The translations under genes were made by a program, and so were the position numbers. Below the pieces are notes generated by a model, which saw nothing but the letters and a program-made list of their open reading frames with translations, searched no databases and was not told the DNA's origin. A DNA stretch of 64,000 nt from Candidatus Enterousia sp. (lineage in GTDB: Bacteria; Pseudomonadota; Alphaproteobacteria; Rs-D84), in the NCBI GenBank assembly GCA_045648665.1, contig JAZROL010000006.1:179-64178 (forward strand), read 5' to 3'. The first letter of the stretch is position 1; the number at the start of each line of letters is the position of its first letter. Shown in pieces: positions 15,010-47,644 of this stretch.

Positions 15010-15017
15010 GAAATCTC

Positions 15018-31385: not shown

Positions 31386-31388
31386 AAT

Positions 31389-32274: not shown

Positions 32275-32517
32275 ATGACACACGAAGATGTCTGGCGTGC
32301 AATAGAATGTTTCGCCAAAGAGCGTGAAATGTCGTGTTCCGGTCTGGCAAAACGCAGCGGTTTGGATCCAACAACATTTAACAGAAGCAAGCGCTGGTCA
32401 AAAGAAGGGCAACCAAGATGGCCTTCTACGAACAGTATTTCAAAAATATTGTCTTCTACTGGGGCTTCTTTGGAAGATTTTACCAAATTTATTCCATCTC
32501 ACGATCATACTATGTAA
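32275..32517 (+). CDS. XRE/Cro-CI-type HTH transcriptional regulator (80 aa)
   Basis: MTHEDVWRAIECFAKEREMSCSGLAKRSGLDPTTFNRSKR... has an HTH pattern. AAGGAG RBS before this ATG. Confidence 0.6.
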   Translation: MTHEDVWRAIECFAKEREMSCSGLAKRSGLDPTTFNRSKRWSKEGQPRWPSTNSISKILSSTGASLEDFTKFIPSHDHTM

Positions 32518-33646: not shown

Positions 33647-33675
33647 TTGACTTTTATGTCATTTTGTGATATTAT
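33647..33675 (+). promoter_or_regulatory. Near-consensus sigma70 promoter (TTGACT-17-TATTAT) directly after the birA stop
   Basis: ttgacttttatgtcattttgtgatattat read directly. Confidence 0.5.
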
Positions 33676-33698
33676 GTAAGGCATCAAGAGTGAAGATT

Positions 33699-33768
33699 CT
33701 GTCCATCAAGCGGGACAGTTTTTTTATTCTGTTAATTCAATCCGCGCATTCATTGTGCGGTTTTTTTA
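33699..33768 (+). terminator. Two tandem intrinsic terminators between the promoter and the first gene of the phage-like cluster
   Basis: CTGTCC-atcaagcg-GGACAG + ttttttt (33699-33727). CCGCGCA-ttcat-TGTGCGG + ttttttt (33742-33768). Confidence 0.7.
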
Positions 33769-33785
33769 TTAACCAAGGTGTGACC

Positions 33786-34196
33786 ATGCAATTATATTTG
33801 ATTAACAATCCAGATGATACACAATCTGTATCATATAAATTGGCACGCATAATTTATGCGGAAACTTTGGCTTCATCTTTATCTTCTGTGGAAGCAATGG
33901 CTTCTATGATTTATAACATTCATACAAAATATAATAGGTCATTTGAAGATATTGCCATGGATAAAAATATTTTTGATGTGCTGAATGAAAATTCTTCGCG
34001 TCATGAATATATGAAAGTTATGGCCGATGATAAAAAATTCCAAATGTGTTTGCGTGTTGTTAAAACAATGATGCATGGAAATTTACGCGACTATGTTTTT
34101 GGTGCAACATCATTTCATCATACTGATGTTATTCCTGATTGGGCAATGTCTCGTGGTTATATCGCAGAAATAGGCGATATATTATTTTATCTTTAA
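33786..34196 (+). CDS. SleB-type cell wall hydrolase (endolysin-like)
   Basis: LARIIYAE...AMASMIYN...GATSFHHTDVIPDWA...IGDILFY matches the Hydrolase_2 pattern. Start set after the terminators (MQLYLINN). Confidence 0.6.
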   Translation: MQLYLINNPDDTQSVSYKLARIIYAETLASSLSSVEAMASMIYNIHTKYNRSFEDIAMDKNIFDVLNENSSRHEYMKVMADDKKFQMCLRVVKTMMHGNLRDYVFGATSFHHTDVIPDWAMSRGYIAEIGDILFYL

Positions 34197-34209
34197 CAAA
34201 GGATTTTAC

Positions 34210-34428
34210 ATGAACAAAATAATAAATGGCGGATATTTACAAGGCCGCAAAACATATGTTATATCTGGTGTTGGTATAATATCTGCAATCGGTGCATATT
34301 TAATCGGCGAAGAAGATATTTTTACAATGCTGCAAACTGTGTTTATGTTAGGTGGAATTTATTTTTTGAAACAAGAATCTTTAACCAAAGGAAAATCAAA
34401 TGGAAAAAGTTCCAGAAAAATTTCTTGA
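34210..34428 (+). CDS. Small two-TM protein (holin-like)
   Basis: 72 aa. Hydrophobic helices YVISGVGIISAIGAYLIG and MLQTVFMLGGIYFL. Basic C-terminus. Next to the hydrolase. Confidence 0.4.
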   Translation: MNKIINGGYLQGRKTYVISGVGIISAIGAYLIGEEDIFTMLQTVFMLGGIYFLKQESLTKGKSNGKSSRKIS

Positions 34429-35056
34429 TGACAAAGGCGAATTAAATACTGCTGCGTTGGTGAAATCATATTGTGAATTAGAAAAGAAAATGGGAAATAT
34501 GATTGCTGTCCCGACAGAAGATAGTGATGATGCGACAAAACAAAAATTCAATCATGCAATTGGTGTGCCTGATAATGCGGCTGAATATCCAATAAACGAA
34601 TTGTTTGATGACGAATCGGTTCGTGAAAAATTTCATGAAATTGGATTAACTTCAAAACAAGTAGAAAAAATTTATGACATTGCAGCAGAATTTTTACAAC
34701 CAACATTAAAAAATTTATTTGAATTACAAACACAAACAAATTCAATAAATGAATTAAAAAAATTTTTTGGTTCAACCGATAAAATGAATGAAGCATTACA
34801 AGAAATAAATGCGTTTGGGGAACGTTTTTTACCAAAAGATGCGTTTGATGAATTATGCGCTACACCCCAGGGAATACAAGGCATATACAAGATGATGCAA
34901 TCAATGGAGCCGGAAGTTTTAACAAATAAAAATGTGTCTGAAAATTTAACCGATGATGATTTGCGTAACATGATGAAAGATCCAAAATATTGGCGCGATC
35001 AAGATCCAGAATATGTTCGTAAAATAGAAAATGGTTTCAAAAAATTATATTCATAA
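34400..35056 (+). CDS. Phage scaffolding (capsid assembly) protein
   Basis: N-terminal VPEKFLDDKGELNTAALVKSYCELEKKMG is typical of podovirus scaffold proteins. Helical and acidic. Upstream of the capsid gene. Confidence 0.55.
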   Translation: MEKVPEKFLDDKGELNTAALVKSYCELEKKMGNMIAVPTEDSDDATKQKFNHAIGVPDNAAEYPINELFDDESVREKFHEIGLTSKQVEKIYDIAAEFLQPTLKNLFELQTQTNSINELKKFFGSTDKMNEALQEINAFGERFLPKDAFDELCATPQGIQGIYKMMQSMEPEVLTNKNVSENLTDDDLRNMMKDPKYWRDQDPEYVRKIENGFKKLYS

Positions 35057-35161
35057 AAATATTTTTTAACTTTTATTCTTTACTATTTTATTTGTTTCAT
35101 ATAAAATGGAATCAAGAACAAAATAATTTTGTTCTATCCAAAAACTTAAAAGGAGAGAATT

Positions 35162-35485
35162 ATGTTCTTTGGTTCTAAGAAAAAATGTGCATGTGCAAAA
35201 CCAGCTGCAAAACCAGCCGCTAAAAAAGCACCTGCAAAAAAAGTTGCTGCTAAAAAACCAGCCGCAAAAAAACCAGTTGCTAAAAAAGCAGCAGTAAAAA
35301 AACCAGTTGCAAAAAAAGTAGTTGCTAAAAAAGCACCTGCAAAAAAAGTTGCTGCTAAAAAACCAGTTGCTAAAAAAGCACCTGCAAAGAAAGTAGTTGC
35401 TAAAAAACCAGTTGCTAAAAAAGCACCTGCAAAAAAAGTTGCTGCTAAAAAACCAGCTGCTAAAAAAGTAGCAAAGAAAAAATAA
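35162..35485 (+). CDS. Histone H1-like Lys/Ala/Pro-repeat protein (107 aa)
   Basis: Almost entirely (A/P/V)AKK(P/A/V) repeats. Strong RBS aaaaggagag. Two terminators follow. Confidence 0.7.
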
Positions 35486-35514
35486 TTTTGCGCGATTTTG
35501 CGTAATTTTTATTG

Positions 35515-35586
35515 CCCCGAAACACAAGCGTTTCGGGGTTTTTGATAAAATTTTCAGTTAGATATTATGTCTAACTGAATTTTTTA
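35515..35586 (+). terminator. Two tandem intrinsic terminators
   Basis: CCCCGAAAC-acaagc-GTTTCGGGG + ttttt. TCAGTTAGA-tattatg-TCTAACTGA + ttttttattt. Confidence 0.75.
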
Positions 35587-35704
35587 TTTGGATAATCCGT
35601 TTGTGGACCCTGAATTAATATTTTGTTTTATGGCGCGGTATTTCGCATAACCATCAATTAAAATAAAAAGGTTTTTAATTTAATTTTTAACAAAAGGATT
35701 TTTT

Positions 35705-36529
35705 ATGTCTTTATCTGTAGATCAAGTGTTTATTAAACAATTTGAAGCAGATGTTCATTTAGCTTATCAGCAAATGGGCACAAAATTACGTTCAACAATT
35801 CGCAGTAAATCTGGGGTTGTTGGTTCTTCTACAACTTTCCAAAAAGTTGGCAAAGGTATTGCTAGCACTAAATCTCGTCATGGTATTGTTCCAGTGATGA
35901 ATTTGAATCACACACCTGTTGAATGTACTTTGCAAGATTATTATGCAGGCGATTGGGTTGATGCTTTGGATGAATTGAAAACAAACGTTGATGAACGTCG
36001 CGTTGTTGCTTCCGCAGGCGCTTATGCTTTGGGTCGCAAAACAGATGAATTGATTATCAACGCTATGAGCAATGCAACACAATATGTTGGTGATTATTCA
36101 ACCGGTTTGACAAAAGCGATGATAATGGGTGCTTTGGAAATACTTAATGCAAACGATGTGCCAGATGATGGTCGCAGATTTGCAGTTGTTGGTGTTCATC
36201 AATGGAACGAATTGTTGAAATTAGATGAATTCGTTTCTGCTGACTATGTTGGTTCTTCGACCCCATTGGTTGACGGTTGTGAATCAAGAAAATGGTTGGG
36301 CATCAACTGGATTTTATGCAATTCGTTGCCTTTGGCCAGCACAGATGATCGTGATTGCTTCATTTATCATGCATCCAGCATTGGACATGCTTGTGGCCAA
36401 GAAGTCAAGACAGATATTACATGGCATGGGGAACGTGCTGCGCACTTTATCAGCAACAGCATGTCTCAGGGAGCTGTGTTAATTGATGCAGAAGGTATTG
36501 TTCGTCTTAAATGCGATGATGATGCCTAG
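35705..36529 (+). CDS. Major capsid protein, T7 gp10-like (HK97 fold)
   Basis: FIKQFEADVHLAYQQ...RSKSGVVGSSTTFQKVGKG...HTPVECTLQDYYAGDWVDALDE...GRKTDELIINAM parallels the T7 gp10 N-terminal pattern. 274 aa. Confidence 0.7.
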   Translation: MSLSVDQVFIKQFEADVHLAYQQMGTKLRSTIRSKSGVVGSSTTFQKVGKGIASTKSRHGIVPVMNLNHTPVECTLQDYYAGDWVDALDELKTNVDERRVVASAGAYALGRKTDELIINAMSNATQYVGDYSTGLTKAMIMGALEILNANDVPDDGRRFAVVGVHQWNELLKLDEFVSADYVGSSTPLVDGCESRKWLGINWILCNSLPLASTDDRDCFIYHASSIGHACGQEVKTDITWHGERAAHFISNSMSQGAVLIDAEGIVRLKCDDDA

Positions 36530-36560
36530 GAATTTATAATTTAACCAAAAGGAAAATCAA

Positions 36561-36791
36561 ATGGCATTTCAAAATAAAAATTTGTCTGTAATTGCATATG
36601 CAAATGGCTTCACTTTGTGGCACTATAAAGAAAATGCAACAATCGCGAATATAACCGCATCTGGATATTTTGCCAGTGTAAAATCTTTGATGAATACTGG
36701 TGATATCATTTTGATTAACGGTTCAAACGGAACAACAATGAAAGTTGTGACTGTTGCAGAAGGTACAGTGACCGTCGGTGCATTGTCTTAA
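36561..36791 (+). CDS. Small phage-cluster protein (76 aa), function unknown
   Basis: ORF with RBS (aaaaggaaa), directly after the capsid gene and followed by a terminator. Confidence 0.45.
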   Translation: MAFQNKNLSVIAYANGFTLWHYKENATIANITASGYFASVKSLMNTGDIILINGSNGTTMKVVTVAEGTVTVGALS

Positions 36792-36815
36792 TTATAAATG
36801 ATTTAATTTATCAAC

Positions 36816-36844
36816 GGGCCGTGTAATGCGGCCCATTTTTTTTT
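36816..36844 (+). terminator. Intrinsic terminator
   Basis: GGGCCG-tgtaatg-CGGCCC a ttttttttt. Confidence 0.75.
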
Positions 36845-36858
36845 AATAGGAAAAAACC

Positions 36859-37377
36859 ATGTTTACAAAAATAGATTTATGTTCAATGGCTTTATTAAAA
36901 TTAGGCGAAAAACCAATTCAATCTTTGCGGGAAGATTCTGCAACTGCGCAATTAGCAAGAACTTTGTTTGATTCAGTTGTGAATACATTATTGTCTGTAT
37001 TTCCATGGTGTTTTGCAACGCAATTAATCAGCATTAATAAAAACAGTGATGGGGATTGTTTAATTCCATCTAATGTTTTACGCATAATAAAATGTGATGG
37101 TAAAATTGTTGGAAATAAAATTATTACACCAGCAGAAAAAATAGATTTAGTAGCGGTTGTTCAAGTAAATCCAGAAGATTTTCCGGATTATTTTGCATCG
37201 CTTGTAGCGACTAAATTGGCTTTGGAATTTTGTATTCCATTAACAGGCGACACAAATGTATTCAAGATGTTATTCTCGTTGTATGAAGCAGAATATCAAA
37301 CAGCTAAATTTATTGACAGTACAATATCAAACCAAACAAATATTGATAATTTTTCTTTGATAAATTCAAGATTTTAA
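36859..37377 (+). CDS. Podovirus adaptor / tail tubular protein A-like
   Basis: The N-terminal pattern IDLCSMALLKLGEKPIQSLREDSATAQLARTLFDSVVNTLLSVFPWCFA is typical of this family. Position after the capsid gene. Confidence 0.5.
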   Translation: MFTKIDLCSMALLKLGEKPIQSLREDSATAQLARTLFDSVVNTLLSVFPWCFATQLISINKNSDGDCLIPSNVLRIIKCDGKIVGNKIITPAEKIDLVAVVQVNPEDFPDYFASLVATKLALEFCIPLTGDTNVFKMLFSLYEAEYQTAKFIDSTISNQTNIDNFSLINSRF

Positions 37378-37392
37378 GAATAGGGGGATATT

Positions 37393-39105
37393 ATGGGAAA
37401 TTTCCTTAAAACACAAAATAATTTTTCTTGTGGTGAAATATCACCCGATTTTTATGCCACGAATAATGGTAAAGGTTTATCAAAACTGGAAAATATGGAC
37501 GTTTTGGAATCTGGGGGATTGACACGCAGGCCTGGGTTAAAGAAAATCGCTAATGTCGTAAATGGTGCGATTATAGTGCCGTTCCCAATTTCAGAATCTG
37601 AAAAATATTTACTTATTATATATAATATAACGACGGAAATATATCATAATGATGAAAAAATCGCGACAATTAATTCACCATGGCACACTGAAGATTTGAG
37701 CAAATTACAATATGCACAAAGATTCAATCAAATATTTTTTGTGCATCCTGATTACAGCCCTTGTGTGTTAACCAAAACAGGAGATGTGTTCAGTATAAAT
37801 AATTTTGTTTTCGCTTCAAATGAAATAGGTGAAGCAAAAGTTCCTTTTACACGATTTGATGATACAAAAGATATTTCAATCACTATCACATCCAGTACCA
37901 TAGATTATAATCATGTCACGTTTACAACAAGTGCTGACTTTTGGACTGAAAATAGTTTAGGTTTGCGTTTTTATGCTATCGGCAAACAATGGGTTATTAC
38001 AGAAGTGCAAAGTGCACGTATAGCGATTGCAAGCACAAACGGTGATTTTTCATATCCTCAAAACGCTGTGACAGATTGGCAAGAATCGGTGTTTAGTAAT
38101 AAACGCGGTTGGCCAATAAGTGTTTCTTTTCATCAAAACAGATTAATTTTTGGTGGAACAAAATCTATGCCAAATTGTTTGTGGATGTCGAAAGTTGGAG
38201 ATTATCACAATTTTGATACCGGAACCGGATTAGATGATGAAGCAATATATGTGACTTTGTTATCTGCACAACATCATCAAATTTGCACAGTTGTCAGTAG
38301 TGATAAATTGCAAGTGTTAACATCTGTTGGGGAGTGGGCTATTTCTAATTCCCCGTTAACACCATCAAACGTTAATGTAAAACAACATACATCTGTGGGT
38401 AGTGTAGCAACCAGGTATTTACCACCACAACAAATAGAAGGCAGAACTGTATTTATAGCTGAATCTGGTAAAGATATAAGAGAATTAGATTTAGATGTTT
38501 TAGGCGAAAGTTATAACGCTACAGATTTATGCGTGTTTGCTAAACATCTTATGAATACACCAATCAGTGTAGCATATAATCAAACAACACACCAACTATT
38601 TGTAGTGATGAATGATGGTTATATGAGTGTATTGAATAAATATTCAAATACAGATATTGCTGCGTGGGGAAAATATTTAACTGATGGTGATTTTAAATAT
38701 GTTTGTGTGTTGGACAATTATACCTATGTAATTGTATCAAGAAATGAAACAACGACATTAGAAAAATTTGATGCAAGTTGTTTAAAAGATGCAGATAACT
38801 ATAATTTTTCATATACAATTTCTGCTTTCCCGATGATAGTCAATGGTTATTGTCCAAAGAAAATACGTGTGCGTAAAATATCAGTGCGCGTCATAAATAC
38901 TAAAACAATATTTGTGAATAGCTATCGATTGGAAATACCTAATGATGTATATGCAGATGGTAATTCTGGATACAAGGGTGATTTATCAATGAATTTCTTG
39001 GGTACACAAAATGATACAACACAACCTATGTGGACCATCGCAAGTGATGAACAATTACCCGCAACAATTTTATCTGTGACAACAGATGGTTGGTATTCAA
39101 TATAA
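37393..39105 (+). CDS. Podovirus nozzle / tail tubular protein B-like (570 aa)
   Basis: N-terminal NFSCGEISPDFYA...GLSKLENMDVLESGGLTRRPG pattern. Size and position after the adaptor gene fit. Confidence 0.5.
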   Translation: MGNFLKTQNNFSCGEISPDFYATNNGKGLSKLENMDVLESGGLTRRPGLKKIANVVNGAIIVPFPISESEKYLLIIYNITTEIYHNDEKIATINSPWHTEDLSKLQYAQRFNQIFFVHPDYSPCVLTKTGDVFSINNFVFASNEIGEAKVPFTRFDDTKDISITITSSTIDYNHVTFTTSADFWTENSLGLRFYAIGKQWVITEVQSARIAIASTNGDFSYPQNAVTDWQESVFSNKRGWPISVSFHQNRLIFGGTKSMPNCLWMSKVGDYHNFDTGTGLDDEAIYVTLLSAQHHQICTVVSSDKLQVLTSVGEWAISNSPLTPSNVNVKQHTSVGSVATRYLPPQQIEGRTVFIAESGKDIRELDLDVLGESYNATDLCVFAKHLMNTPISVAYNQTTHQLFVVMNDGYMSVLNKYSNTDIAAWGKYLTDGDFKYVCVLDNYTYVIVSRNETTTLEKFDASCLKDADNYNFSYTISAFPMIVNGYCPKKIRVRKISVRVINTKTIFVNSYRLEIPNDVYADGNSGYKGDLSMNFLGTQNDTTQPMWTIASDEQLPATILSVTTDGWYSI

Positions 39106-39129
39106 CAATAATAACTAAAAGGATTTTTT

Positions 39130-39477
39130 ATGGGACAATTAGTATCAGATGTAACAAAAGTTTTAGATTATAAAGAATCTAAAAAACAAGCGGAAAACCA
39201 ACGTCAAAAAATTTTGGCGCAAATGGCCGCAGACGAAGCCAATAAAACTAATTTAATAAAAAAAGCATTGGCAACACAGCGTGCAAAATATGGCGCATCA
39301 GGAAATTCTGGGAAAGGGCTTTCTGAAAAAGCGGTTTTGAAACGTTTGCGTGACGAAACAGCAAGTCCATATGATGAAAAAAATAAACTTAATATTGAAA
39401 AATTGAACAGTATAAAAACTAAAAAACCAAATTTAGTAAAAAATTGGCTGTCCCAGATAGATAAAATCGCTGGATAA
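39130..39477 (+). CDS. Basic coiled-coil phage-cluster protein (115 aa)
   Basis: ORF with RBS. Lys/Gln-rich helix. No motif. Confidence 0.45.
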   Translation: MGQLVSDVTKVLDYKESKKQAENQRQKILAQMAADEANKTNLIKKALATQRAKYGASGNSGKGLSEKAVLKRLRDETASPYDEKNKLNIEKLNSIKTKKPNLVKNWLSQIDKIAG

Positions 39478-39492
39478 AAATAGGGGGAATTT

Positions 39493-40029
39493 ATGTATAA
39501 AACTTCTTATACTGGCAATGGAACAGATACAGAATTTGTATTTGCGTTCCCTTTCTTTCAAAATGCTGATGTTAAAGTCGCATTAGATAATGTTTTATTA
39601 GATGCAGACAGTTATGATGTTAATCCAAATGATAACTTCAATGGCGGTTTAGTTGTGTTTTCTGTTGCGCCAGCTGATGGTGTTCAAATAGATATTTTTC
39701 GTCAAATATCTTTGAATAGAGTGATTGATTATCAACCAACTTCTAAGATTGACCCAGAAGATTTGAATGCAGATTTTAATTTTCTGTTGGCTGCCTTTGA
39801 AGATTTGCGCAAGGTTGATGTAGATTTAGCAGAATGGGCAAATGTACACGATAACGTTTTAAGCAAAATAGATTACACTATAAATTTAATTGAAGATAAA
39901 TTGACAGGTGGCGGAGTATTGGGGTTGTATAACAATTTATTAAGCGTGCTGAACGATTTAATAAATGATTATGGTTCTGTCGCGGAAGAAGCATCTAATG
40001 ACGATAATGACGATTACGGCAGCATTTAA
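39493..40029 (+). CDS. Tail-fibre N-terminal (T7 gp17 adaptor-binding) domain protein, lacking a distal fibre
   Basis: YTGNGTDTEFVFAFPFFQNADVKVALDN...VVFSVAPADGVQIDIFRQISLNRVIDYQ...DLNADFNFLLAAFEDL matches the T7 fibre N-domain pattern. Only 178 aa. Confidence 0.6.
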   Translation: MYKTSYTGNGTDTEFVFAFPFFQNADVKVALDNVLLDADSYDVNPNDNFNGGLVVFSVAPADGVQIDIFRQISLNRVIDYQPTSKIDPEDLNADFNFLLAAFEDLRKVDVDLAEWANVHDNVLSKIDYTINLIEDKLTGGGVLGLYNNLLSVLNDLINDYGSVAEEASNDDNDDYGSI

Positions 40030-40603
40030 TTTTTTAGATGCCTGGAATAACTTGCTTGGCTTAAAGACACCGGAACACCATAAAAAAATAATGGAGTTTT
40101 TGGTAAATGTATTAAACGAAGAACCGCATCGAGGATTACTGAATGCTTTTCGTCATTCCGGCAAATCTACTGTTGTTGGGATTTTTGCAGCATGTGTGTT
40201 ATATCATCGGCCGGAAACCAGAATTTTAATATTATCTGCTGAATCTGGTTTGGCATCTAGAATGGTTTCGCATATAAAAAATATACTGGAAAACCATCCT
40301 TTCTGTGATGATATTTTGCCTGATGTTAAAAAAGAGTGGGGCGCACATAAAATAACAATTAAACGCCCTATTGGGATTAGAGAGCCTTCGGTAATATGTC
40401 AGGGAATTTCTGGGAATATTACAGGTATGCGATCTGATTTAATATTGTGCGATGACGTAGAGGTTCCAAATACCTGTAATACGCAACAAAAAAGAACTAA
40501 TTTACGTGAAAGATTGCGCGAACTCGATTTTATACTTTCGCCAAATGGCACTATGATTTACATAGGAACGCCACATACAAAGGATACTATATATCAAATT
40601 TAA
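39998..40603 (+). CDS. Terminase large subunit, N-terminal ATPase piece
   Basis: Walker A RHSGKST, Walker B LILCDDVE, IYIGTPH coupling motif. Ends YQI* at the junction with the antisense module. Start uncertain (39998 or 40007). Confidence 0.7.
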   Translation: MTIMTITAAFNFLDAWNNLLGLKTPEHHKKIMEFLVNVLNEEPHRGLLNAFRHSGKSTVVGIFAACVLYHRPETRILILSAESGLASRMVSHIKNILENHPFCDDILPDVKKEWGAHKITIKRPIGIREPSVICQGISGNITGMRSDLILCDDVEVPNTCNTQQKRTNLRERLRELDFILSPNGTMIYIGTPHTKDTIYQI

Positions 40604-41241
40604 GATAATGAAGATATAAATGTACGCAATTTGGCCAATAATTCGTTCCCTTGTTCGCCGAACATAGGTAAATATGTTTCAAATTCAGGCATGTCTGCTT
40701 GGATTTGAGCGCGATTCCGTTCGGTCAGTGTTTCGGAAACCAATTCTTGGGCGGAATCCCAAATTCTAAATGCTTTGTCCGTACGAATCACACGATCCCA
40801 TTTTGATAAAGTTTCTTTATCGGTAGATAACGCAGATTTAACATCTTGAAGCCAATCTTCGCCGAATTTTTGTACGCAAGGTAATGATTTTATTTTTTCA
40901 AGTCCTTCTGGAGTTGTTTCAAAATTATCCAAAGCAGATTTGATTTCTTCAATTTCTGGTTTGGTCAATGTTTTTGATAAATCTTTGTCATACATTAAAC
41001 CGCCGTATGGCAATAAATCATTATCTATGGAATCCATAGGTGTTTTGCCGCTGCGTAAATTGTTTATATGTGCAATTAATTTCTTACCTGTTGGCAGATT
41101 TTCGAGTTCTGCGATTACTTGTTCGTCATTAGATTCATCAATAAAAACTTGGTTCACAGCTAACCAACCACCGTTTATAACGTGTTCTTGACGATAAAGA
41201 TTCAAAAGACGTTGCGCGATTATGTGTGCTTGTTGTTGCAT
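40600..41241 (-). CDS. Hypothetical protein (213 aa), last gene of the antisense module
   Basis: ORF only. Its stop codon overlaps the TerL-N stop codon by 2 nt. Confidence 0.5.
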   Translation of the reverse strand: MQQQAHIIAQRLLNLYRQEHVINGGWLAVNQVFIDESNDEQVIAELENLPTGKKLIAHINNLRSGKTPMDSIDNDLLPYGGLMYDKDLSKTLTKPEIEEIKSALDNFETTPEGLEKIKSLPCVQKFGEDWLQDVKSALSTDKETLSKWDRVIRTDKAFRIWDSAQELVSETLTERNRAQIQADMPEFETYLPMFGEQGNELLAKLRTFISSLS

Positions 41242-41272
41242 TGTGTTCCCTCCCTTATGAAACGAATAAATT

Positions 41273-42280
41273 CTATTTCATAACAATCATAACAACTTTG
41301 TGCATGGTTTGTGCATGTATTTTTTCATCAGGATTAGATACATGACCATATTTTTTACCATGTGTATCTTGACGTGTGACCGCAATTTGACCATCAACCA
41401 CATCTGTGTCAGTCAATGCTGAAAAATCAGTGTCAATAAACATGGCCAAATCACCGACGTCAGGTGTGGAATTGGCATCTACAAAAACATACGAGTTTTC
41501 AGGAACAAAACCACCCAAACGTTTAGAATTAGGAACAACTGCGTATATGCCTTTGCGTCCTTCTAATTCAACTGGTGCAACAATCATTACTTCATCAGAT
41601 TTGTGTAATTTGATTGTTTTTCCGTTTGGATTGCCGAAAACAGGAACCAATTTCTTACGAGCGTTATCATATAATTGTGCGCCGTATAACCCGCCCTGTA
41701 CATCCAATCCAGACATAGGATTGCCAGGTTCTAAAACAGATTTGACGCGTTCTTTGACTTTATTAATTTGTTTTGTTAATTCGCCGGCATTATACATTTT
41801 TGCGATTTCTTCAAATAATTGATCCGCGGTATAGCCAAATGTTTTTGCTAATACATCAATTTCGTCTTCGTATACTTCGCGTTGACCGACCTCGATTTTA
41901 TGGTACACAGACAAAGTCATATGTGATGATTTTGCGGCCTCTGCGATTGTTTTGCCAGAATTTTGACGAATCTTGCGCAATCCGGAACCAAAAACTTTCA
42001 AACCACTGTCTTCATTATCTGTTAAACGACGTTTTATTTCACTTTGCCATTGGTTGGCAACTGAATCAGATTCGTGAATAAAGATATCAGATAACTTGCA
42101 ACCAAGAATAGAACACACGTTTAATAACTGTTTTTGGTTAAGACGACGAACGCCTTTTTCAATCTTTGATACAGCAGACAAAGACAAATTTGCACGACGT
42201 GCCAATTCAGTCATTTTCATGCCTTTCGATGCACGAATGTTTCGAATGTTATTTGGAAAAATTATTTCTTCTTGGGCCAT
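41273..42280 (-). CDS. Double XRE-type HTH regulator with S24/LexA-like C-terminal beta-domain (catalytic Ser-Lys not evident)
   Basis: Two HTH_3 units (IRNIRASKGMKMTELARRANLSLSAVSKIEKG; LRKIRQNSGKTIAEAAKSSHMTLSVYHKIEVG). The C-terminal 130 aa resemble the CI/LexA fold but have no GDSM-type serine. Confidence 0.65.
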   Translation of the reverse strand: MAQEEIIFPNNIRNIRASKGMKMTELARRANLSLSAVSKIEKGVRRLNQKQLLNVCSILGCKLSDIFIHESDSVANQWQSEIKRRLTDNEDSGLKVFGSGLRKIRQNSGKTIAEAAKSSHMTLSVYHKIEVGQREVYEDEIDVLAKTFGYTADQLFEEIAKMYNAGELTKQINKVKERVKSVLEPGNPMSGLDVQGGLYGAQLYDNARKKLVPVFGNPNGKTIKLHKSDEVMIVAPVELEGRKGIYAVVPNSKRLGGFVPENSYVFVDANSTPDVGDLAMFIDTDFSALTDTDVVDGQIAVTRQDTHGKKYGHVSNPDEKIHAQTMHKVVMIVMK

Positions 42281-42347
42281 GTGTATCCTCCTTGGGATTT
42301 GTTGACAAAATATTATACAATTTTAATTATTTTATCAAGAAAAATAA

Positions 42348-43898
42348 TTAAATTATGTCGTCAGGAATATCATTTATGTCAACTGTCGCCGGATTATCCG
42401 CTTTGGATAGTTGCGCATAACCACCGTCAACATCAATATCATCAGGTATTTGTTGGTTTCCAAAAGAATTAAGATTGTCAAATAAGTAGTATTCACCAGT
42501 GAAACTTAAACGAACTGTTTCTGGTTTACCATGACGATTCTTTGCAATGATAATTTCTGCTTTATTGCGAGATTGTTCCAATCGGTTTTGCCAATGTTGG
42601 GTCGCGGTCTCAGATGCAGTTCCAGACAAACGATTCGTTGGTGAACGGTCTTTAAGATAGTATTCTTCACGATATGTAAACATAACAATATCCGCGTCTT
42701 GTTCAATAGAGCCAGATTCACGCAAATCAGATAATATAGGTCTTTTGTCATCACGTTGTTCGACGCTTCGTGATAATTGAGACAAAGCAATCACAGGAAC
42801 ATCTAATTCCTTGGCCAATATTTTCAAACCGCGGGTGATTTCTGATAATTCTTGAACTCGATTGTCATTGTGTTTGCCACCGGGGGAGGTCATTAACTGT
42901 AAATAGTCGATAACAATCAAGGCGACACCATTAAATTGGCGTGCAATACGACGAGCGCGTGTCTTCATCATGGCAACAGACATATTTGCGGCATCATCTA
43001 TGACCAAAGGTACCTTTGACAATGCGCTGGAATACTGAGACATTTTCATGAAATCTTCGTCTGATAAATTACCTTCACGCATGTGCGATGCAGGTATTTT
43101 TGATTGCGAAGATAACACGCGTTGCGCCAGTTGTTGATTTGACATTTCAAGACTGAAAAATATAACGGCGCCCTTGTATTGTGCATTTGCGCGACCTTTG
43201 AATATAGCATCGGCAGCATTAAAAGCGATATTCATAGCCAATGTTGTTTTACCCATGCCTGGTCGTCCGGCGATAATTATTAAATCAGAATGATGCAGAC
43301 CGCTGATTGATTTATCAATATCATCAAGACCCGTGGTCAGGCCTGACAATTTACCATCCGCTTTGTACGCGATTTCTGCTTCTTGTAAAGCACCCTTTAA
43401 AGCGTCAGCCAAAGAAACCATGCTGCGTTCAGATTGACCGGTAGATGCCAAATTAAACAATTTTTGTTCGGTTGCTTCTATTTGCCTGTCCACCGGGTTA
43501 TCAATGTCTTCGGTATAAGCAGCATCGATAATGCTTTGTCCCAAACCGATTAAATCACGACGTCGGGCATTATCAAAAACTATACGACCATAATGTTCAA
43601 CGTTTACAACCGTTGCGCCAGCAGATGATAATTTAGACAAATATTCAACGCCACCAACACTATCCAAAACACCCTGTTGTTCAAGATATGTTTTCGCGGT
43701 GATGATGTCAAAAGGTATTCCAACTGCAAATTGACGTAGGGCCAATTTATAAATCTCTTTGTGCGCAGGATGTGAAAAATGTTCAGGTAGCAAAAATTCA
43801 GATACTGTTTCCAAAGCGCGGTTGTTCATTAAAACCGCGGCAAGAACAGCTTGTTCTGCCTCTAAATTCGTAGGTAAAGTTTTCGGAGTAAAGTCCAT
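42348..43898 (-). CDS. dnaB: Replicative DNA helicase DnaB
   Basis: N-terminal LEAEQAVLAAVL, Walker A GRPGMGKTT, SLEMS, IDYLQLM, ALSQLSR. Extra acidic C-terminal tail (~40 aa). Confidence 0.9.
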   Translation of the reverse strand: MDFTPKTLPTNLEAEQAVLAAVLMNNRALETVSEFLLPEHFSHPAHKEIYKLALRQFAVGIPFDIITAKTYLEQQGVLDSVGGVEYLSKLSSAGATVVNVEHYGRIVFDNARRRDLIGLGQSIIDAAYTEDIDNPVDRQIEATEQKLFNLASTGQSERSMVSLADALKGALQEAEIAYKADGKLSGLTTGLDDIDKSISGLHHSDLIIIAGRPGMGKTTLAMNIAFNAADAIFKGRANAQYKGAVIFFSLEMSNQQLAQRVLSSQSKIPASHMREGNLSDEDFMKMSQYSSALSKVPLVIDDAANMSVAMMKTRARRIARQFNGVALIVIDYLQLMTSPGGKHNDNRVQELSEITRGLKILAKELDVPVIALSQLSRSVEQRDDKRPILSDLRESGSIEQDADIVMFTYREEYYLKDRSPTNRLSGTASETATQHWQNRLEQSRNKAEIIIAKNRHGKPETVRLSFTGEYYLFDNLNSFGNQQIPDDIDVDGGYAQLSKADNPATVDINDIPDDII

Positions 43899-44745
43899 GT
43901 CTATTAGATTAAACGAAAATTTTAATAATTCAATACCTTTTTTACAAGGTTATAAACAATTAAAAATTCCAATAATGGATAATGCCGGAAATTCAGCATG
44001 GCCAGAGATGTTCCCGCCAGAAAAAATACGTGAAATGGAACATATTGTTGGCCCCAGACATTTTTCAGCGCAAATGATGTTGGAATATGTCCCAGAAGAA
44101 CGAATAGTGCTGGATCCGGGGGCTTTGCATTTTTATACGGATAATTTTGATGTTTCGCATTGTCAAATTGGTAATCATATAATCACTGGATACACAATCT
44201 ACTGGGATCCGTCTTCTGGTCGAACAGTAGCAGATGGCAGTGTTTGCGTTTTGGTGTATAAAGATGATAAATCAAAAACAGCCTTTATTCATGACATAGT
44301 TTATATGGCCACAGATGATGATGATTTACATCCTTTGGCGACCCAATGTGGATATGTATTATCTTTTATGCAAAAACACAATGTTAATCGTATAGGCATA
44401 GAAATAAATGGTATAGGAAATGCTTTGCCCGAAATTATGCGTCAAATTGCTAATAACCGTAATATGTCTGTTAACATAATACAAATTGCAAATCATATAA
44501 AAAAAGAAACAAGAATTTTGAACGCTGTAGAGCCAATGCTTAACACAGGACGACTTTACGTGCATGAAACAATAAAACAAACAATGTTGTTGTCTGAAAT
44601 GTTAGCGTGGACACCACTTGGTTCAAAAGAACACGATGACGGATTGGATGCGGTTGCAGGTGCTTTGTCTATGCAACCAATTCCAATGCGACCATCACAA
44701 AATCGAAATGTGTTAATCAAAGCAAACACAGAATTCAAAATATAA
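43897..44745 (+). CDS. Terminase large subunit, C-terminal piece (ATPase lid plus RNase H-like nuclease)
   Basis: WPEMF...FSAQMMLEYVP, then YWDPSSG...DGSV and EHDDGLDA acidic motifs. Own ATG with GGAG 8 nt upstream. The ATG overlaps the dnaB ATG (CATG). Confidence 0.7.
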   Translation: MSIRLNENFNNSIPFLQGYKQLKIPIMDNAGNSAWPEMFPPEKIREMEHIVGPRHFSAQMMLEYVPEERIVLDPGALHFYTDNFDVSHCQIGNHIITGYTIYWDPSSGRTVADGSVCVLVYKDDKSKTAFIHDIVYMATDDDDLHPLATQCGYVLSFMQKHNVNRIGIEINGIGNALPEIMRQIANNRNMSVNIIQIANHIKKETRILNAVEPMLNTGRLYVHETIKQTMLLSEMLAWTPLGSKEHDDGLDAVAGALSMQPIPMRPSQNRNVLIKANTEFKI

Positions 44746-44760
44746 ACAAAAGGAAAATAA

Positions 44761-45984
44761 ATGCAAAATAACATAATGCAACTATATAAACGTGCGTTAA
44801 ACGAACGTGAAATTTGGTTAAACCGTTGGAAAACAGCGATGCGATATACGAATCCAACTGATGATATAGATGCTGCAACTTTATTTGATGCAACTGCATC
44901 TGATGCGGTGGATAATTTGGCTGCATCAATGTATTCTTTGTTGACACCACCTGAATCTTTGTGGATAAATCTGGTGCGTGAAAGCGATTTATCTCCAGAT
45001 GCAGAAAATGCAACAGCTGTATTGCGCGCGCATTTGAACGATTCAAATTTTTATACAACAATTCATCAATGCTATACTGATTTAGTCGTTTTAGGAACAG
45101 CATGTTTGTTTATGGCTGAAAATCCAATAGGCGCAGATTCCGCTTTCTCGTTTACTGCAATTCCAATGACAGATATAGCGTTGTTGCCGGGGGCAGTTTT
45201 TCACACTACATCAATGCCTGCGTGCGATGTCATGGAAAAATATCCAACTTTTGTTTTTCCTGATAATTTGAAAAACACAATTAAATCAAATCCTCAAACA
45301 CCAATTAGATTAGTGCAATCATTAATAGGGCAAGATTTTACAGCCTGGGTCGATGTTGGCGGAGATATTGAAAACAATATTGTTGCGCGTGGAACATTTG
45401 AAACAAACCCATATATAATTTTCCGTTGGTCTTTGTTAAGTGGTGAAATTTATGGGCGCAGTCCTGTTTTGCGTGCGTTGCCAGATATAAAAACGGCAAA
45501 CAAAGTTGTTGAATTGGTTTTGAAAAACGCGACTATCGCGGTCAGTGGTATTTGGCAGGCAGACGATGATGGAGTGATAAATTTATCAAACATAAATTTA
45601 ACTCCAGGTGCAATTATACCAAAAGCAGTGGGCAGTTCTGGATTAACACCATTATCCAGTGGAGCTGATTTCGACGTTTCACAAATAGTATTGCGTGATT
45701 TGCGCGATAGAATCAGACATACGCTTTTAGCGGATAGACTTGGTTTGTTGTCTGATAAAGAAATGACAGCAACTGAAATATTGGCGCGCAATAGTGATAT
45801 GGTAAGAATTTTAGGTGCTACATATGGTCGTTTATTGCATGAATTCATTAAACCTTTGTGTGAACGAGGATTGCAGATATTATCACGTCGTGGTTTGATT
45901 GAACCAATTTCTCTGCACAGTGATGCGGAATTGAAATATATTGCGCCGATTGCCCAAATGGCACGTGAAGAAATGTCGATATAA
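44761..45984 (+). CDS. Portal (head-to-tail connector), T7 gp8-like
   Basis: N-terminal RWKTAMRYTNP...DATASDAVDNLAASMYSLLTPPESLWINL matches the connector-family pattern. 407 aa. Directly after TerL. Confidence 0.6.
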   Translation: MQNNIMQLYKRALNEREIWLNRWKTAMRYTNPTDDIDAATLFDATASDAVDNLAASMYSLLTPPESLWINLVRESDLSPDAENATAVLRAHLNDSNFYTTIHQCYTDLVVLGTACLFMAENPIGADSAFSFTAIPMTDIALLPGAVFHTTSMPACDVMEKYPTFVFPDNLKNTIKSNPQTPIRLVQSLIGQDFTAWVDVGGDIENNIVARGTFETNPYIIFRWSLLSGEIYGRSPVLRALPDIKTANKVVELVLKNATIAVSGIWQADDDGVINLSNINLTPGAIIPKAVGSSGLTPLSSGADFDVSQIVLRDLRDRIRHTLLADRLGLLSDKEMTATEILARNSDMVRILGATYGRLLHEFIKPLCERGLQILSRRGLIEPISLHSDAELKYIAPIAQMAREEMSI

Positions 45985-45995
45985 GGATTTATAGT

Positions 45996-46196
45996 ATGAC
46001 TGATATTGAAAAAGAATATGCGCGTACTTTTGCAAGTGCTTCTGGAAAACAAGTATTGGCCCATTTGCGTTCTATAACAATAGAACGCATTTTGGGGCAA
46101 AATGTATCAAATGAAGAATTACGCTGGTGGGCGGCGCAGAATGCCTTGGTCCATCAAATAGAAAATTTAATAAAAAGGGGGAATAATCCAACATAA
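45996..46196 (+). CDS. Bbp19-like small phage protein
   Basis: FASASGKQVLAHLRSITIER...ELRWWAAQNALVHQIENLI resembles the Bbp19 (Bordetella phage BPP-1) domain pattern. Confidence 0.45.
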   Translation: MTDIEKEYARTFASASGKQVLAHLRSITIERILGQNVSNEELRWWAAQNALVHQIENLIKRGNNPT

Positions 46197-46237
46197 ATTC
46201 ATAACATAAACATTTACTGCGGATTATTATATAACAA

Positions 46238-46498
46238 ATGCAAAAACAAAATAATTTTATGATTTTTTTAGATGTTTTGCGGGATAGTTGGTTTCTTATT
46301 GCGTTCGTCGCCGGCATTATTTATTGGGTCGCACGCCAGGATTCTTCACTGTCTGAACTAGAACGTCAAAATCAACGTATAACATCACTGGAAAACAGAA
46401 CTACTATTTTAGAATCAGGAATAGGCCAATTACAATTAAAAATAGACGGGATAAAGGAAGATGTCACTTTGATAAAAAGTGCAGTTATAAAAAACTAG
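46238..46498 (+). CDS. Membrane-anchored coiled-coil protein (86 aa)
   Basis: One TM (WFLIAFVAGIIYWV) followed by a coiled coil. Last gene of the cluster. Confidence 0.45.
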   Translation: MQKQNNFMIFLDVLRDSWFLIAFVAGIIYWVARQDSSLSELERQNQRITSLENRTTILESGIGQLQLKIDGIKEDVTLIKSAVIKN

Positions 46499-46848
46499 AT
46501 GGCATTTTTTGCCCAATAAATTTTGTTTTTACAAACAACAATAACATCAAATCTGGCATCGCCCATCCAATGTTTATTTATAAGAAAAGTTTCTGCCGCC
46601 CGGCGCAGACGTGCGGATTGTGCCGGTGTAATCGCGGCCCATGCAGCGCCGACGCTTTGCCTGTTTTTTACTTCTACAAAAACAATAGTATTTTTGTGTT
46701 TTGCGATAATGTCTATTTCGGCGCGGTTTGTGTTTTTACCGGTTATGTACCTGGATTTTAAAATGCTGTATCCATGAAAACGCAAATACCATCGTGCCAG
46801 AAATTCTGCCCAAAGCCCAACTGTATAAGATGTTTTATTAAAAAGCAT
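46495..46848 (-). CDS. yraN: YraN-family (UPF0102) endonuclease
   Basis: GLWAEFLARWYLRFHGYSIL...EIDIIAKHKNTIVFVEVKNR is the typical YraN pattern. Start moved to MLFNKTS. Confidence 0.8.
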   Translation of the reverse strand: MLFNKTSYTVGLWAEFLARWYLRFHGYSILKSRYITGKNTNRAEIDIIAKHKNTIVFVEVKNRQSVGAAWAAITPAQSARLRRAAETFLINKHWMGDARFDVIVVCKNKIYWAKNAI

Positions 46849-47644
46849 ATGGTTTTGCCTGGAAATTTTCACGCGCAGATATAATATTTTCTGCGGCATC
46901 ATTTGCTTTTAATCCATTGTCGGTCAAAATCAATTGACCATAATATGCTTGCATCATAGGTTCGTGTGCATTTTCTGCAGAAATCCATTTGTCTTCATCT
47001 GAATTTGGTTTGCCGTATTTATCTATTACGCCCTGCCAAAAAGCCAATAACTTTTTTTCTCTTTGATTTTCGAAACGCGTATCAGCACCATCTAAATCAT
47101 TTGCATCATTTGTGTAAACTATCTTCCATACAAGATTATCTGTCGCATTGCTGGTAAAATAAATGTCCAATTTTTCACCCGTAAAAGGCCGTTCCAGATG
47201 AATTTCGGACACGTAGAGCAATCCGCGATTACGTGCTGTTGAATAAATACAATTATTAAGTGCCTCTGGAACAAAAACATTGTTTTGACGGCATTCGTAA
47301 TCCAGGTTATATTTCCATTCTTTGTCTATTGTGTAAACAACGCTGTCTTTTTGACGTGGGGCATACAAACCGCCATTATCAAAAAACAAATTATTTATTT
47401 CATCATAATTCATTCCCAACATAACGCCGGCTATATCAAATTGTTTTACATTTAAAACATCTGCATCATCATTTAGATATACATAATCAAGGTTTACATC
47501 AGTATCTTCACTTTCGACCGTTGCAAAATTATTAAATGAAAAATCATATTCATCTGCATAAACATTTATTGTGTTTAAATTAAACACAAAACATAAAATC
47601 ATAAAAGATAAAAATTTCTTTAACATATTACTTTTTCCCATCAT
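46838..47644 (-). CDS. Secreted hypothetical protein (268 aa)
   Basis: Signal peptide MLKKFLSFMILCFVFNLNTINVYA. No motif. Confidence 0.55.
   Translation of the reverse strand: MMGKSNMLKKFLSFMILCFVFNLNTINVYADEYDFSFNNFATVESEDTDVNLDYVYLNDDADVLNVKQFDIAGVMLGMNYDEINNLFFDNGGLYAPRQKDSVVYTIDKEWKYNLDYECRQNNVFVPEALNNCIYSTARNRGLLYVSEIHLERPFTGEKLDIYFTSNATDNLVWKIVYTNDANDLDGADTRFENQREKKLLAFWQGVIDKYGKPNSDEDKWISAENAHEPMMQAYYGQLILTDNGLKANDAAENIISARENFQAKPYAF

Follow-up and report, generated by a model that had tools for sequence, protein, structure and literature searches.

Why should a gut alphaproteobacterium carry a compact set of podovirus-type lysis, head, tail and DNA-packaging genes between the housekeeping genes birA and yraN? 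The question is raised by 64,000 nt of Candidatus Enterousia sp. contig JAZROL010000006.1 (hereafter, the window), in which the cluster occupies positions 33647–46498 (~13 kb). Enterousia, of the order Rs-D84, has genomes of 0.75–1.0 Mb without a tricarboxylic acid cycle or a respiratory chain (PMC12306168). Many of its transporters and pathways are missing, and dependence on partners is possible (PMC12306168). The words phage, capsid and gene transfer are all absent from that paper, the main one on Enterousia genomics and the one checked for them, and we found no literature linking Rs-D84 to gene transfer agents (GTAs) or Enterousia to phage-like particles. Here we report that the cluster is a domesticated, vertically inherited particle locus and not a prophage, a conclusion that is well supported. 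The conservation of its genes strongly suggests that the locus still builds DNA-filled, short-tailed particles released by lysis, and we consider it probable that it is a host-fixed 'viriform' derivative of a T7-like short-tailed temperate phage, acting as a GTA-like DNA exchange system.

A phage-derived cluster fixed in the host chromosome

To survey relatives of the locus, contigs from GTDB, with a single genome for each species, were scanned with an alignment of the N-terminal half of the large terminase (TerL-N). Matches came from at least 558 of these species representatives, and the best 80 loci were inspected (labels such as L001 denote individual relatives' loci). These 80 genomes, one of them a circular chromosome of 958,618 bp, are all Candidatus Enterousia or alphaproteobacterial gut metagenome-assembled genomes (MAGs) and come from rumen, hindgut, chicken, mouse, human and termite sources. 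As far as the contigs reach, all 80 loci hold the 21 genes from p93 to yraN as full-length matches in the same order, on the same strand and at the same birA–yraN position, and never within a ~40 kb prophage with an integrase. A search with the capsid protein yielded 4079 homologs. Identity is 74–100% in the best 120 clusters, whose named sources are all 'Alphaproteobacteria bacterium' MAGs, and some homologs lie on contigs of up to 0.97 Mb. The IMG/VR database holds the locus many times, in each case as a 'provirus' fragment of 4–14 kb and never within a phage-sized genome.

Annotation relied on Pfam, PHROGs and NCBIfam profiles, a PDB profile search, AlphaFold2 (AF2) models compared by Foldseek with PDB and BFVD, Rfam and PADLOC. 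Both flanks consist of housekeeping genes: priA, lpxI, a trmA-like gene and birA on the left, and yraN (UPF0102), three genes without a family match, bamA, rseP, cdsA, uppS and frr on the right. Neither Pfam nor PHROGs detected other phage-like genes in these flanks, and PADLOC, searched for known defence systems, gave generic helix-turn-helix (HTH) matches only. The GC content of the cluster is the same as that of its surroundings, with no compositional anomaly, and att-like (attachment site) repeats were found neither at the cluster ends nor around the dnaB block described below. The cluster thus shows none of the features of an inducible prophage, namely an integrase, att sites, variable presence and a genome of ~35–40 kb.

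Pairwise dN/dS values (Nei–Gojobori; the window against 13 moderately diverged loci) lie between 0.04 and 0.24 for all genes, far from 1. They are lowest for p86 (0.042), TerL-N (0.052), capsid (0.053) and portal (0.053), followed by p93 (0.066), dnaB (0.083) and the gene for a 335-amino-acid (aa) regulator (0.098), and then by the C-terminal half of the terminase, TerL-C (0.14), birA (0.14), the tail nozzle (0.20) and p145 (0.24). Protein identity across loci spans 72–100% for the capsid, 74–96% for the portal, 61–93% for DnaB and 48–88% for birA, and the structural proteins diverge in step with host genes (Spearman rho 0.5–0.7; 0.71 for capsid against dnaB). All 13 phage-derived genes are intact in ~52 of the 56 loci that hold both cluster ends; two MAGs carry one frameshift each, in the capsid gene of L029 and the scaffold gene of L057.

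Nucleotide identity between the window and the closest strain, L001, is 80–86% over the locus and 95–99% over the capsid and p76 genes (35600–36800). This recombinant segment has a sharp boundary at the terminator 3′ of p76, and its dS of 0.08–0.10, compared with ~1 elsewhere, indicates that the alleles moved recently between strongly diverged strains.

Together, the same locus and gene order in 80 species-level genomes, the low dN/dS, the co-divergence with host genes and the lack of an integrase or att sites establish the cluster as domesticated. The original prediction, made from the letters of the window, had favoured a maintained host locus over a fresh prophage; its description of intact open reading frames (ORFs), and the checks that it had proposed on relatives, dN/dS and att repeats, all come out on that side. 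The pattern is best explained by fixation of the cluster in the common ancestor of Candidatus Enterousia and its relatives (Rs-D84), with vertical descent since.

A large terminase in two genes

The large terminase (TerL) is encoded by two genes, separated by a 3.3-kb block on the opposite strand that comprises u213, the 335-aa regulator and dnaB (Table 1). TerL-N carries invariant ATPase motifs (Walker A, FRHSGKST; Walker B with the catalytic Glu, LILCDDVE; and GTPH) and ends at the same residue (…TIYQI/TIYR…) in all lineages. TerL-C starts with the segment that is next in line in an intact TerL (PFLQGYKQLKIP…; alignment from PFLQGY) and keeps the nuclease motifs WDPS, EINGIG and HDDGLDAV. 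Judged by the known architecture of TerL, the break would fall 3′ of the RecA-type core, the lid subdomain going with the nuclease.

The split is ancient. The spacing between the two genes varies: L135, whose capsid is 69% identical, has only a 335-nt spacer with promoter- and terminator-like sequences, and in L078, from a termite-gut lineage, the gap has grown to ~9 kb. In L047 and L088, dnaB, TerL-C and portal do not occur within the 8–10 kb sequenced beyond TerL-N, and the cluster is apparently split. A search of 1.8 billion representative proteins returned, as the nearest relatives outside Enterousia (at most 51% identical), mostly intact terminases of 450–510 aa. Because both halves are under purifying selection, the two-subunit terminase is presumably functional.

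Other ways of accounting for two separated halves were also considered. An intron and a split intein were rejected: Rfam found no group I or group II intron in either the window or the L135 spacer of 335 nt, and a split intein would leave extra residues at the junction, of which there are none. A developmentally excised element of the skin type finds no support, the insert having neither flanking repeats nor a recombinase. The more distant relative L135 has taken a different set of host-type genes into the cluster: between its TerL-C and portal genes (10341–11267 of that locus) are two genes whose products have N-terminal methylation motifs like those of type IV pilins, and a membrane protein stands in place of the histone-like gene.

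The block between the halves modifies two earlier claims. The structural genes had been described as co-directional, which holds for all of them (plus strand) but not for the three minus-strand genes; and the cluster had been said to lack a replication module, which is right for polymerase and primase but overlooked a DnaB helicase and a CI-like repressor. This DnaB is of the cellular type, passing the models NF006606 (605 bits, cut-off 540) and TIGR00665 (508 bits, cut-off 385) and failing the phage_DnaB model TIGR03600 (418 against 499 bits). In 71 of 73 loci the start codons of dnaB and TerL-C overlap in frame, on opposite strands, as CATG (43896–43899 in the window); the exceptions are L044, with a 306-nt spacer, and L060. 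No intergenic DNA separates the two genes, and each has its promoter and ribosome-binding region within the other's coding sequence. We speculate that transcription of dnaB and that of the TerL-C/portal operon may interfere mutually.

The 335-aa regulator has this length in nearly all homologs. Its AF2 model (pLDDT 76) gave Foldseek matches to a lambda-186 hybrid repressor (7jvt, E 7e-5), to lambda repressor (3bdn, E 2e-3) and to a CI cleavage-domain fragment (2ho0, TM-score 0.56), and in this model the C-terminal domain resembles that of lambda CI. An S24 domain was not significant by PDB profile search or by hhalign to an S24 repressor, and the residue aligned with the catalytic Ser is an Arg. 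Its neighbour u213 has 1202 homologs, of which the 120 listed are 68–100% identical and have no Pfam domain; the protein itself has no match in Pfam, PHROGs, NCBIfam, PADLOC or the PDB profile search, and its AF2 model (pLDDT 78) has no Foldseek match in PDB or BFVD. The gene stays linked to TerL-N in L047 and L078.

Head, tail and lysis genes

The genes that the original prediction had listed were all recovered at the same coordinates with profile support, and the capsid, portal, terminase and nozzle assignments were upheld by profile and PDB searches (Table 1). The T7-like structural module is complete for portal, scaffold, adaptor and nozzle (gp8, gp9, gp11 and gp12 types). All phage matches in Pfam and PHROGs are to podovirus families, and no tape measure, tail tube or siphovirus-type head–tail connector was found among them. 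The capsid protein, which had been thought short at 274 aa, spans the whole PF19821 profile and is therefore not a truncation; the entry of its nearest solved structure, 9eg4, contains seven chains.

What is missing is equally consistent. Between nozzle and TerL-N there are only p115 and a 178-aa fibre N-domain, with no core proteins of the gp14, gp15 or gp16 type and no full gp17. Pfam and PHROGs scans of all ORFs found, as predicted, no integrase, excisionase, polymerase, primase or recognisable small terminase (TerS) in the cluster, and likewise no single-subunit RNA polymerase or DNA replication genes of the Autographiviridae type. The nozzle is the fastest-evolving structural protein (45–83% identity across loci), and the fibre-stub gene is the sole gene that is often missing, being absent from L002, L007, L016, L023, L025, L028, L039, L049, L052, L054, L079, L085 and others.

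Table 1 Features of the cluster and its upstream regulators, by position in the window
Feature	Positions	Strand	Evidence and remarks
p93, small Cro/CI-type HTH protein, no cleavage domain	32236–32517	+	HTH_26 E 1.7e-5; 5′ of birA in related loci
p145, fast-evolving, possible C-terminal winged helix	32553–32990	+	Position conserved; overlaps birA start
Sigma-70 promoter, near-consensus, extended −10 (TTGACT-17-TG-TATTAT)	33647–33675	+	Directly 3′ of birA stop
Leader, two tandem intrinsic-terminator hairpins, each with a T-run	33699–33718, 33742–33760	+	Between promoter and first gene
Cell-wall hydrolase (endolysin, SleB/Hydrolase_2 type)	33786–34196	+	PF07486 E 5.3e-6, 27.4 bits (cut-off 27); phrog_938 E 6e-11
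Holin-like protein, 72 aa, two hydrophobic helices, charged C-terminus	34210–34428	+	Topology alone; position kept across loci
T7-type scaffolding (capsid assembly) protein, 218 aa	34400–35056	+	PF05396 E 1.7e-11; phrog_3742 E 1e-16
Ala/Lys/Pro-rich histone-H1-like putative DNA-binding protein	35162–35485	+	PF07382 HC2 E 8e-16; NCBIfam histone-like matches under cut-off
Two terminator hairpins 3′ of histone-like gene	35514–35579	+	At least one hairpin in scaffold–capsid gap in 64/67 loci
Conserved non-coding element 5′ of capsid gene	35590–35654	+	GGATAATCC, GGACCC, stem-loop with invariant GGCGC...GCATAACC (35630–35654)
Major capsid protein, 274 aa, HK97 fold	35705–36529	+	PF19821 E 4e-73; phrog_3437 E 4e-73; PDB 9eg4 E 1e-26
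p76	36561–36791	+	phrog_18004 E 5e-13; homologs also 3′ of capsid gene in group-2 loci (related phage-like elements)
Intrinsic terminator 3′ of capsid–p76 unit	36816–36834	+	Hairpin in 54/79 loci
Tail adaptor/tubular protein A (T7 gp11-like)	36859–37377	+	phrog_394 E 1.4e-28; Pfam Tube E 9e-4, under cut-off
Tail nozzle/tubular protein B (T7 gp12-like), 570 aa	37393–39105	+	phrog_376 E 7e-89; PDB 8ck1 'Tail Nozzle' E 1e-28
p115, helical	39130–39477	+	Conserved; 3′ of nozzle
Fibre stub, 178 aa, only the tail-attachment N-domain of a T7 gp17-type fibre	39493–40029	+	phrog_1640 E 9e-15; PF03906 E 1.4e-4, under cut-off
TerL-N, RecA-type ATPase core	39998–40603	+	phrog_38 E 6e-44, profile positions 287–458
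u213, 213-aa orphan, all-alpha	40600–41241	−	Adjoins TerL-N and repressor even in deepest lineages
CI-type repressor-like regulator, 335 aa	41273–42280	−	HTH_3 E 1.4e-19, two stretches; predicted C-terminal beta domain
DnaB replicative helicase, cellular (alphaproteobacterial) type	42348–43898	−	DnaB and DnaB_C Pfam domains
TerL-C, lid subdomain and RNase-H-type nuclease	43897–44745	+	phrog_38 E 1.3e-39, profile positions 468–712; PF22530, PF17289
Portal (T7 gp8 type), 407 aa	44761–45984	+	PF12236 E 2e-80, profile positions 3–441 of 489; PDB T7 portal 6r21 E 1.5e-7
Bbp19-like small protein	45996–46196	+	PF25181 E 2e-6, above cut-off
p86, one transmembrane helix and coiled coil, spanin- or holin-like	46238–46498	+	Sequence reading; phrog_736 E 5e-4; stop overlaps yraN stop

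Several small genes can be described further. No family in Pfam, PHROGs or NCBIfam matches the 72-aa protein with two predicted transmembrane helices. For p115, which has no match in Pfam, PHROGs, NCBIfam or the PDB profile search, the position suggests a virion- or tail-associated protein rather than TerS; as a TerS candidate it is disfavoured by the lack of any match and by its homolog in L166, which comes after the nozzle and not after TerL. An ORF rich in Ala, Lys, Pro and Val occupies the scaffold–capsid interval in 66 of 67 loci, the deepest lineages included. In the window this histone-like gene has its own promoter-like site (35079–35107) and its own terminators, and its product may be a nucleoid protein of the cell or a condenser of DNA for packaging. 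At the portal/Bbp19 junction (45939–46094) Rfam gave a weak match to the small RNA FuFi-1 (29 bits against a gathering threshold of 59.6; E 0.005), which is probably due to chance.

Promoter, terminators and regulators

The promoter pattern TTGAY-N17(±1)-TAnnnT occurs 5′ of the hydrolase gene in 64 of 65 loci, with the consensus CTTGACTTTt...TGaTAntATa...CATnAA and a conserved start region, CATnAA. Downstream of it, 63 of 64 loci have one or more leader terminator hairpins, and 50 of the 64 have two or more; the stem sequences vary by lineage, and position and structure are retained. An ORF previously read from a GTG at 33666 is in reality this promoter and leader, the hydrolase starting at 33786, while the promoter and terminator logic of its own that had been ascribed to the cluster is present and conserved across loci. 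No sigma-70 consensus promoter was found 5′ of the capsid, adaptor, TerL-C or portal genes.

A strong promoter followed by tandem and internal terminators points to gating of the antitermination type. Lambdoid late operons are likewise served by a strong promoter that runs into terminators, and the terminator 3′ of the capsid–p76 unit is placed as T-phi is after T7 gene 10. With the lambdoid PR′–tR′ region the Enterousia leader shares an architecture, that is, a constitutive strong promoter with one or more terminators within ~50–100 nt, 5′ of lysis and structural genes; CATAAA at the transcript start can be likened to the −10-like element that forms the sigma-dependent pause site of lambdoid promoters. 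The likeness is in architecture only, as lambdoid control uses the Q antiterminator whereas no Q-like protein was identified in Enterousia. In the GTA cluster of Caulobacter (CcGTA), antitermination carries transcription past internal terminators, with GafZ as the antiterminator (PMC11150451).

The conserved element 5′ of the capsid gene includes an ATAACC-containing motif in 67 of 77 loci and a stem-loop of variable loop length, for which RNAalifold gave six pairs, three of them with compensatory changes; Rfam holds no match to the element. Part of it resembles a sigma-54 promoter (TGGCGC...TTGCA), a candidate that we rejected: the distance between its two parts ranges over 9–17 nt and the two arms show covariation, which makes the look-alike a hairpin.

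The nature of p145 is less clear than that of p93. Its ortholog in L002 has a weak Trans_reg_C match (E 0.01, under cut-off), and its C-terminus reads like the winged-helix N-domain of a bifunctional BirA, a domain that the adjoining birA does not have. On this reading, p145 may be the DNA-binding domain of BirA, split off as a separate gene, and not a regulator of the cluster.

Relation to phages and phage-like elements

Among cultured phages, Pelagibacter phage Hodr comes nearest (capsid 44% and portal 31% identical). Its order of TerL, portal, scaffold, capsid, p76-like gene, adaptor and nozzle is the same circular order as in the Enterousia cluster, but Hodr has genes for 159, 783 and 1247 aa 3′ of the nozzle, in the position of the T7 core proteins, and ~20 kb of further genes, all of which the Enterousia cluster lacks. 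Closer elements are found in L138–L168 and in the faecal virome scaffold MT838907, with capsids 59–65% identical. These share homologous TerL, portal, Bbp19-like, scaffold, capsid, p76, adaptor and nozzle genes in the same circular order.

Compared with these relatives, the Enterousia genes are reduced. In the closer elements examined TerL is intact (498–510 aa), whereas it forms two genes in Enterousia, and the portal has 505–512 aa (505–527 in relatives overall) against 407 in Enterousia, a loss of ~100 C-terminal residues. The nozzle has 570 aa against 632–693 aa, and the scaffold is shorter too. L146 encodes an 802-aa collagen-like protein, probably a long fibre, whereas the Enterousia cluster has no distal fibre; more generally, relative to the phages, it has no recognisable TerS and no large proteins in the core or ejection position. 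The closer elements also carry a holin of the GTA_holin_3TM type and a repressor of 207–210 aa with HTH and Peptidase_S24 domains. By tblastn, p93 is 46–62% identical to the N-terminus of these repressors (group-2 loci); it corresponds to their HTH domain only, the cleavage domain having been lost. Another related element, L164, has a leader similar to that of Enterousia, with promoter, CATAAAC and terminator hairpin, 5′ of its scaffold gene (5067–5200 of that locus), and gating of the late promoter may therefore go back to the phage ancestor.

Proposed function and alternatives

The strong case for a locus that still builds particles comes from the constraint on capsid, portal, both TerL halves, adaptor, nozzle and lysis genes. 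That the particles would carry random host DNA and act as a GTA is the leading, unproven reading, and the most economical one given a host-fixed element with no replication or integration module and no TerS found.

We propose the following course of events. In most cells the locus would be silent, because the strong constitutive promoter 3′ of birA runs into the leader terminators; the further terminators before and after the capsid unit would add to this silencing. Repression could come from p93 and the 335-aa regulator, both HTH proteins of the CI type. A signal for antitermination or derepression would allow RNA polymerase to read through in a subpopulation. Scaffold, capsid and the truncated portal would then form a procapsid, and the TerL-N ATPase and the TerL-C lid and nuclease would assemble non-covalently into a packaging motor that, having no recognisable TerS, would fill heads with any available DNA, that is, host DNA. 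Adaptor, nozzle and, where present, fibre stub would close the head, and the hydrolase, the 72-aa protein and p86 would lyse the cell and release the particles. Their role would be GTA-like DNA exchange between related cells, with delivery that does without ejection proteins of the T7 type.

Several points weigh against this proposal. Particles, packaged DNA and transfer are all deduced from genes alone. We know of no precedent for a working split TerL, and separately expressed domains of T4 gp17 reportedly fail to reconstitute packaging. A TerS could be present among the small ORFs (p76, p115, the Bbp19-like gene and p86) or elsewhere in the genome. No antiterminator was identified in the cluster, where u213 has no similarity to any solved structure, and the tandem leader terminators could partly be terminators of birA. 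Judged by family scores and genome size, this dnaB would be the only helicase gene in the genome. A real difficulty is that, with neither ejection proteins nor a receptor-binding fibre, delivery into a Gram-negative recipient is hard to picture. Populations may also be small, which would make the benefit of a GTA doubtful, the same doubt as has been raised for endosymbionts (PMC9254644).

These difficulties feed a different explanation, which we rate as possible but rather unlikely: the particles may have been repurposed for discarding or exporting DNA, for releasing DNA or lysis products to kin, for killing or adhering to neighbours, or for interaction with a host or partner cell. Such a change would fit the loss of ejection proteins, distal fibre and portal C-terminus, as well as a fibre stub that many lineages can do without. 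The same puzzle has led to the same proposal for the GTA head genes of endosymbionts (PMC9254644), PBSX provides a precedent for particles that do not deliver their DNA (PMC12946183), and Enterousia may depend on partners (PMC12306168). However, both TerL halves retain their catalytic motifs under strong constraint, which argues that DNA packaging is still a selected activity; adaptor and nozzle are kept, although a mere nanocompartment would need neither; and recombination between diverged strains is visible at the locus.

That exchange of the capsid segment could also be read as a sign that the element is still selfish: a minimal temperate phage, or else a satellite, that relies on host replication, fills its heads with its own ~13 kb and flanking DNA, and moves horizontally. 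Such an element would have use for the complete head, tail, packaging and lysis set and the CI-type regulators, and IMG/VR classes the locus as viral. Another point on this side concerns the seven chains of 9eg4: taken as a T=7 asymmetric unit, they would imply a head with room for much more than 13 kb. Yet the locus, order and orientation are the same in 80 of 80 species-level genomes, there is no integrase or att repeat (the only recombinase of the window is 19 kb off, beside tRNA genes), the genes co-diverge with those of the host and match its composition, and a cellular-type dnaB and a histone-like gene lie inside. Moreover, the cluster is apparently split in L088 and L047, which a self-packaging element should not tolerate. 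We regard this explanation as highly improbable.

Hardly any credence is left for a functionless, decaying prophage kept in place by embedded essential genes (dnaB and the histone-like gene), an option the original prediction had left open: in its favour are the loss of many phage functions, the break of TerL into two genes and the single frameshifts in L029 and L057, but the conserved locus, dN/dS values as low as or below those of flanking housekeeping genes and full-length genes in nearly all complete loci, down to 48% birA identity, effectively refute it, strongly reduced genomes (PMC12306168) would not carry 9.5 kb of junk, and embedded essential genes protect only themselves, not 13 other ORFs.

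Returning to the GTA-like reading, we add a bolder and doubtful conjecture: that all or nearly all Rs-D84 carry a hitherto undescribed family of viriforms, independently derived from a T7-like podovirus and working with a two-subunit TerL, in which the CATG wiring to the essential dnaB switches the cell between replication and terminal packaging and the histone-like protein condenses the packaged DNA. If that wiring is as conjectured, particle production would interfere with dnaB expression and vice versa.

Should the particles move DNA, they would represent an independent invention of a GTA from a short-tailed phage, the first of the T7 type, throughout a widespread uncultured gut order. Genomes of less than 1 Mb spend ~1% of their length on the locus, which implies a strong benefit, possibly recombination that offsets mutational decay in small genomes. 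The cluster also offers a natural minimal parts list for a DNA-packaging podovirus particle, with no core proteins, no long fibre and a shortened portal. The TerL split across all lineages examined (to 48% birA identity) bears on how packaging motors can be constructed. Finally, hundreds of 'proviruses' in IMG/VR are this host locus.

Neighbouring genes

Between priA and p93, a stretch of ~5.7 kb (26534–32200) is present in the window, L002 and L007 and missing from L001 (6171–6480 of that locus), a strain-specific deletion or rearrangement; it encodes a T2SSE-type ATPase, an FKBP, lpxI, an outer-membrane beta-barrel gene and the trmA-like gene. ORFs with the Listeria–Bacteroides repeat (Flg_new) at 20152–20640 and 30444–31865 probably encode surface proteins, and a YadA-anchor protein is encoded nearby in L001. 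On the other side, yraN and bamA are separated by three minus-strand genes (268, 238 and 241 aa; 46838–49066). Two or more of their products have an N-terminus like a signal peptide or a transmembrane helix, and none matches Pfam or PHROGs.

Farther off, at 13226–15095, a gene for a 546-aa large serine recombinase (Resolvase, Recombinase and Zn-ribbon domains) ends in or beside tRNA-Glu (14810–14884) and tRNA-Asp (15018–15095). The 11–14 kb stretch 5′ of it has the lowest GC content of the window (~0.30) and ORFs without a family match. The region has no relation to the cluster, which is 19 kb away, and may be an integrated element of its own.

Comparison with known gene transfer agents

As in the alphaproteobacterial GTAs RcGTA, CcGTA and BaGTA, the chromosome of Enterousia carries phage-derived head, tail, packaging and lysis genes. 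Shared with these GTAs are also the lack of an integration or replication module, vertical inheritance, purifying selection and regulators integrated with the host. The antitermination gating of CcGTA past internal terminators (PMC11150451) is matched by the promoter–terminator leader and the internal terminators of Enterousia. The viral ancestor, however, is another one, as indicated by PF12236, PF19821, PF05396 and the nozzle/adaptor short tail, with no Pfam match to long-tail components; TerL is in two genes with host genes between them, and there is no recognisable TerS. The cluster does not belong to the RcGTA type (Rhodogtaviriformidae), with which, by Pfam and PHROGs, it shares no capsid, portal or tail family. 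In RcGTA recipients, DNA uptake depends on competence genes.

Short tails have been met before. The original prediction had held that all described GTAs are long-tailed, a view now out of date: the podovirus-like FpGTA of Faecalibacterium, described in 2026, was called the first of that morphology (PMC12946183), and early Bartonella particles were described as tail-less or short-tailed (PMC9662315). FpGTA resembles the Enterousia cluster in its gut host, in its compact ~10.5 kb operon with TerL, portal, scaffold, capsid and short-tail-type proteins, and in being near-ubiquitous in its genus (PMC12946183). It differs in its Bacillota host, its candidate TerS and its second locus for tail and lysis genes (PMC12946183). 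FpGTA particles with ~9 kb of host DNA have been shown experimentally (PMC12946183), whereas the Enterousia system, set beside FpGTA or the RcGTA type, is known from its genes. The two were compared by description only, and they are likely to be of independent origin. PBSX, also discussed there, is a GTA-like element that does not deliver its own DNA (PMC12946183).

Closer to Enterousia in lifestyle are the reduced endosymbiont genomes of Rickettsiales and Holosporaceae, in which GTA head genes are under purifying selection (PMC9254644). These remnants are alike in being phage-derived structural genes kept by selection in reduced alphaproteobacterial genomes, but they are RcGTA-type head genes without tail genes, whereas Enterousia keeps a full short-tailed set with lysis genes, from another ancestor. 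GTAs as a class, podovirus-like ones included, are thus already known, and the Enterousia element itself is apparently undescribed; what sets it apart from the described GTAs is its T7-type ancestry, the division of its terminase into two genes, a dnaB inside the cluster whose start codon overlaps that of TerL-C, and the lineage of its host.

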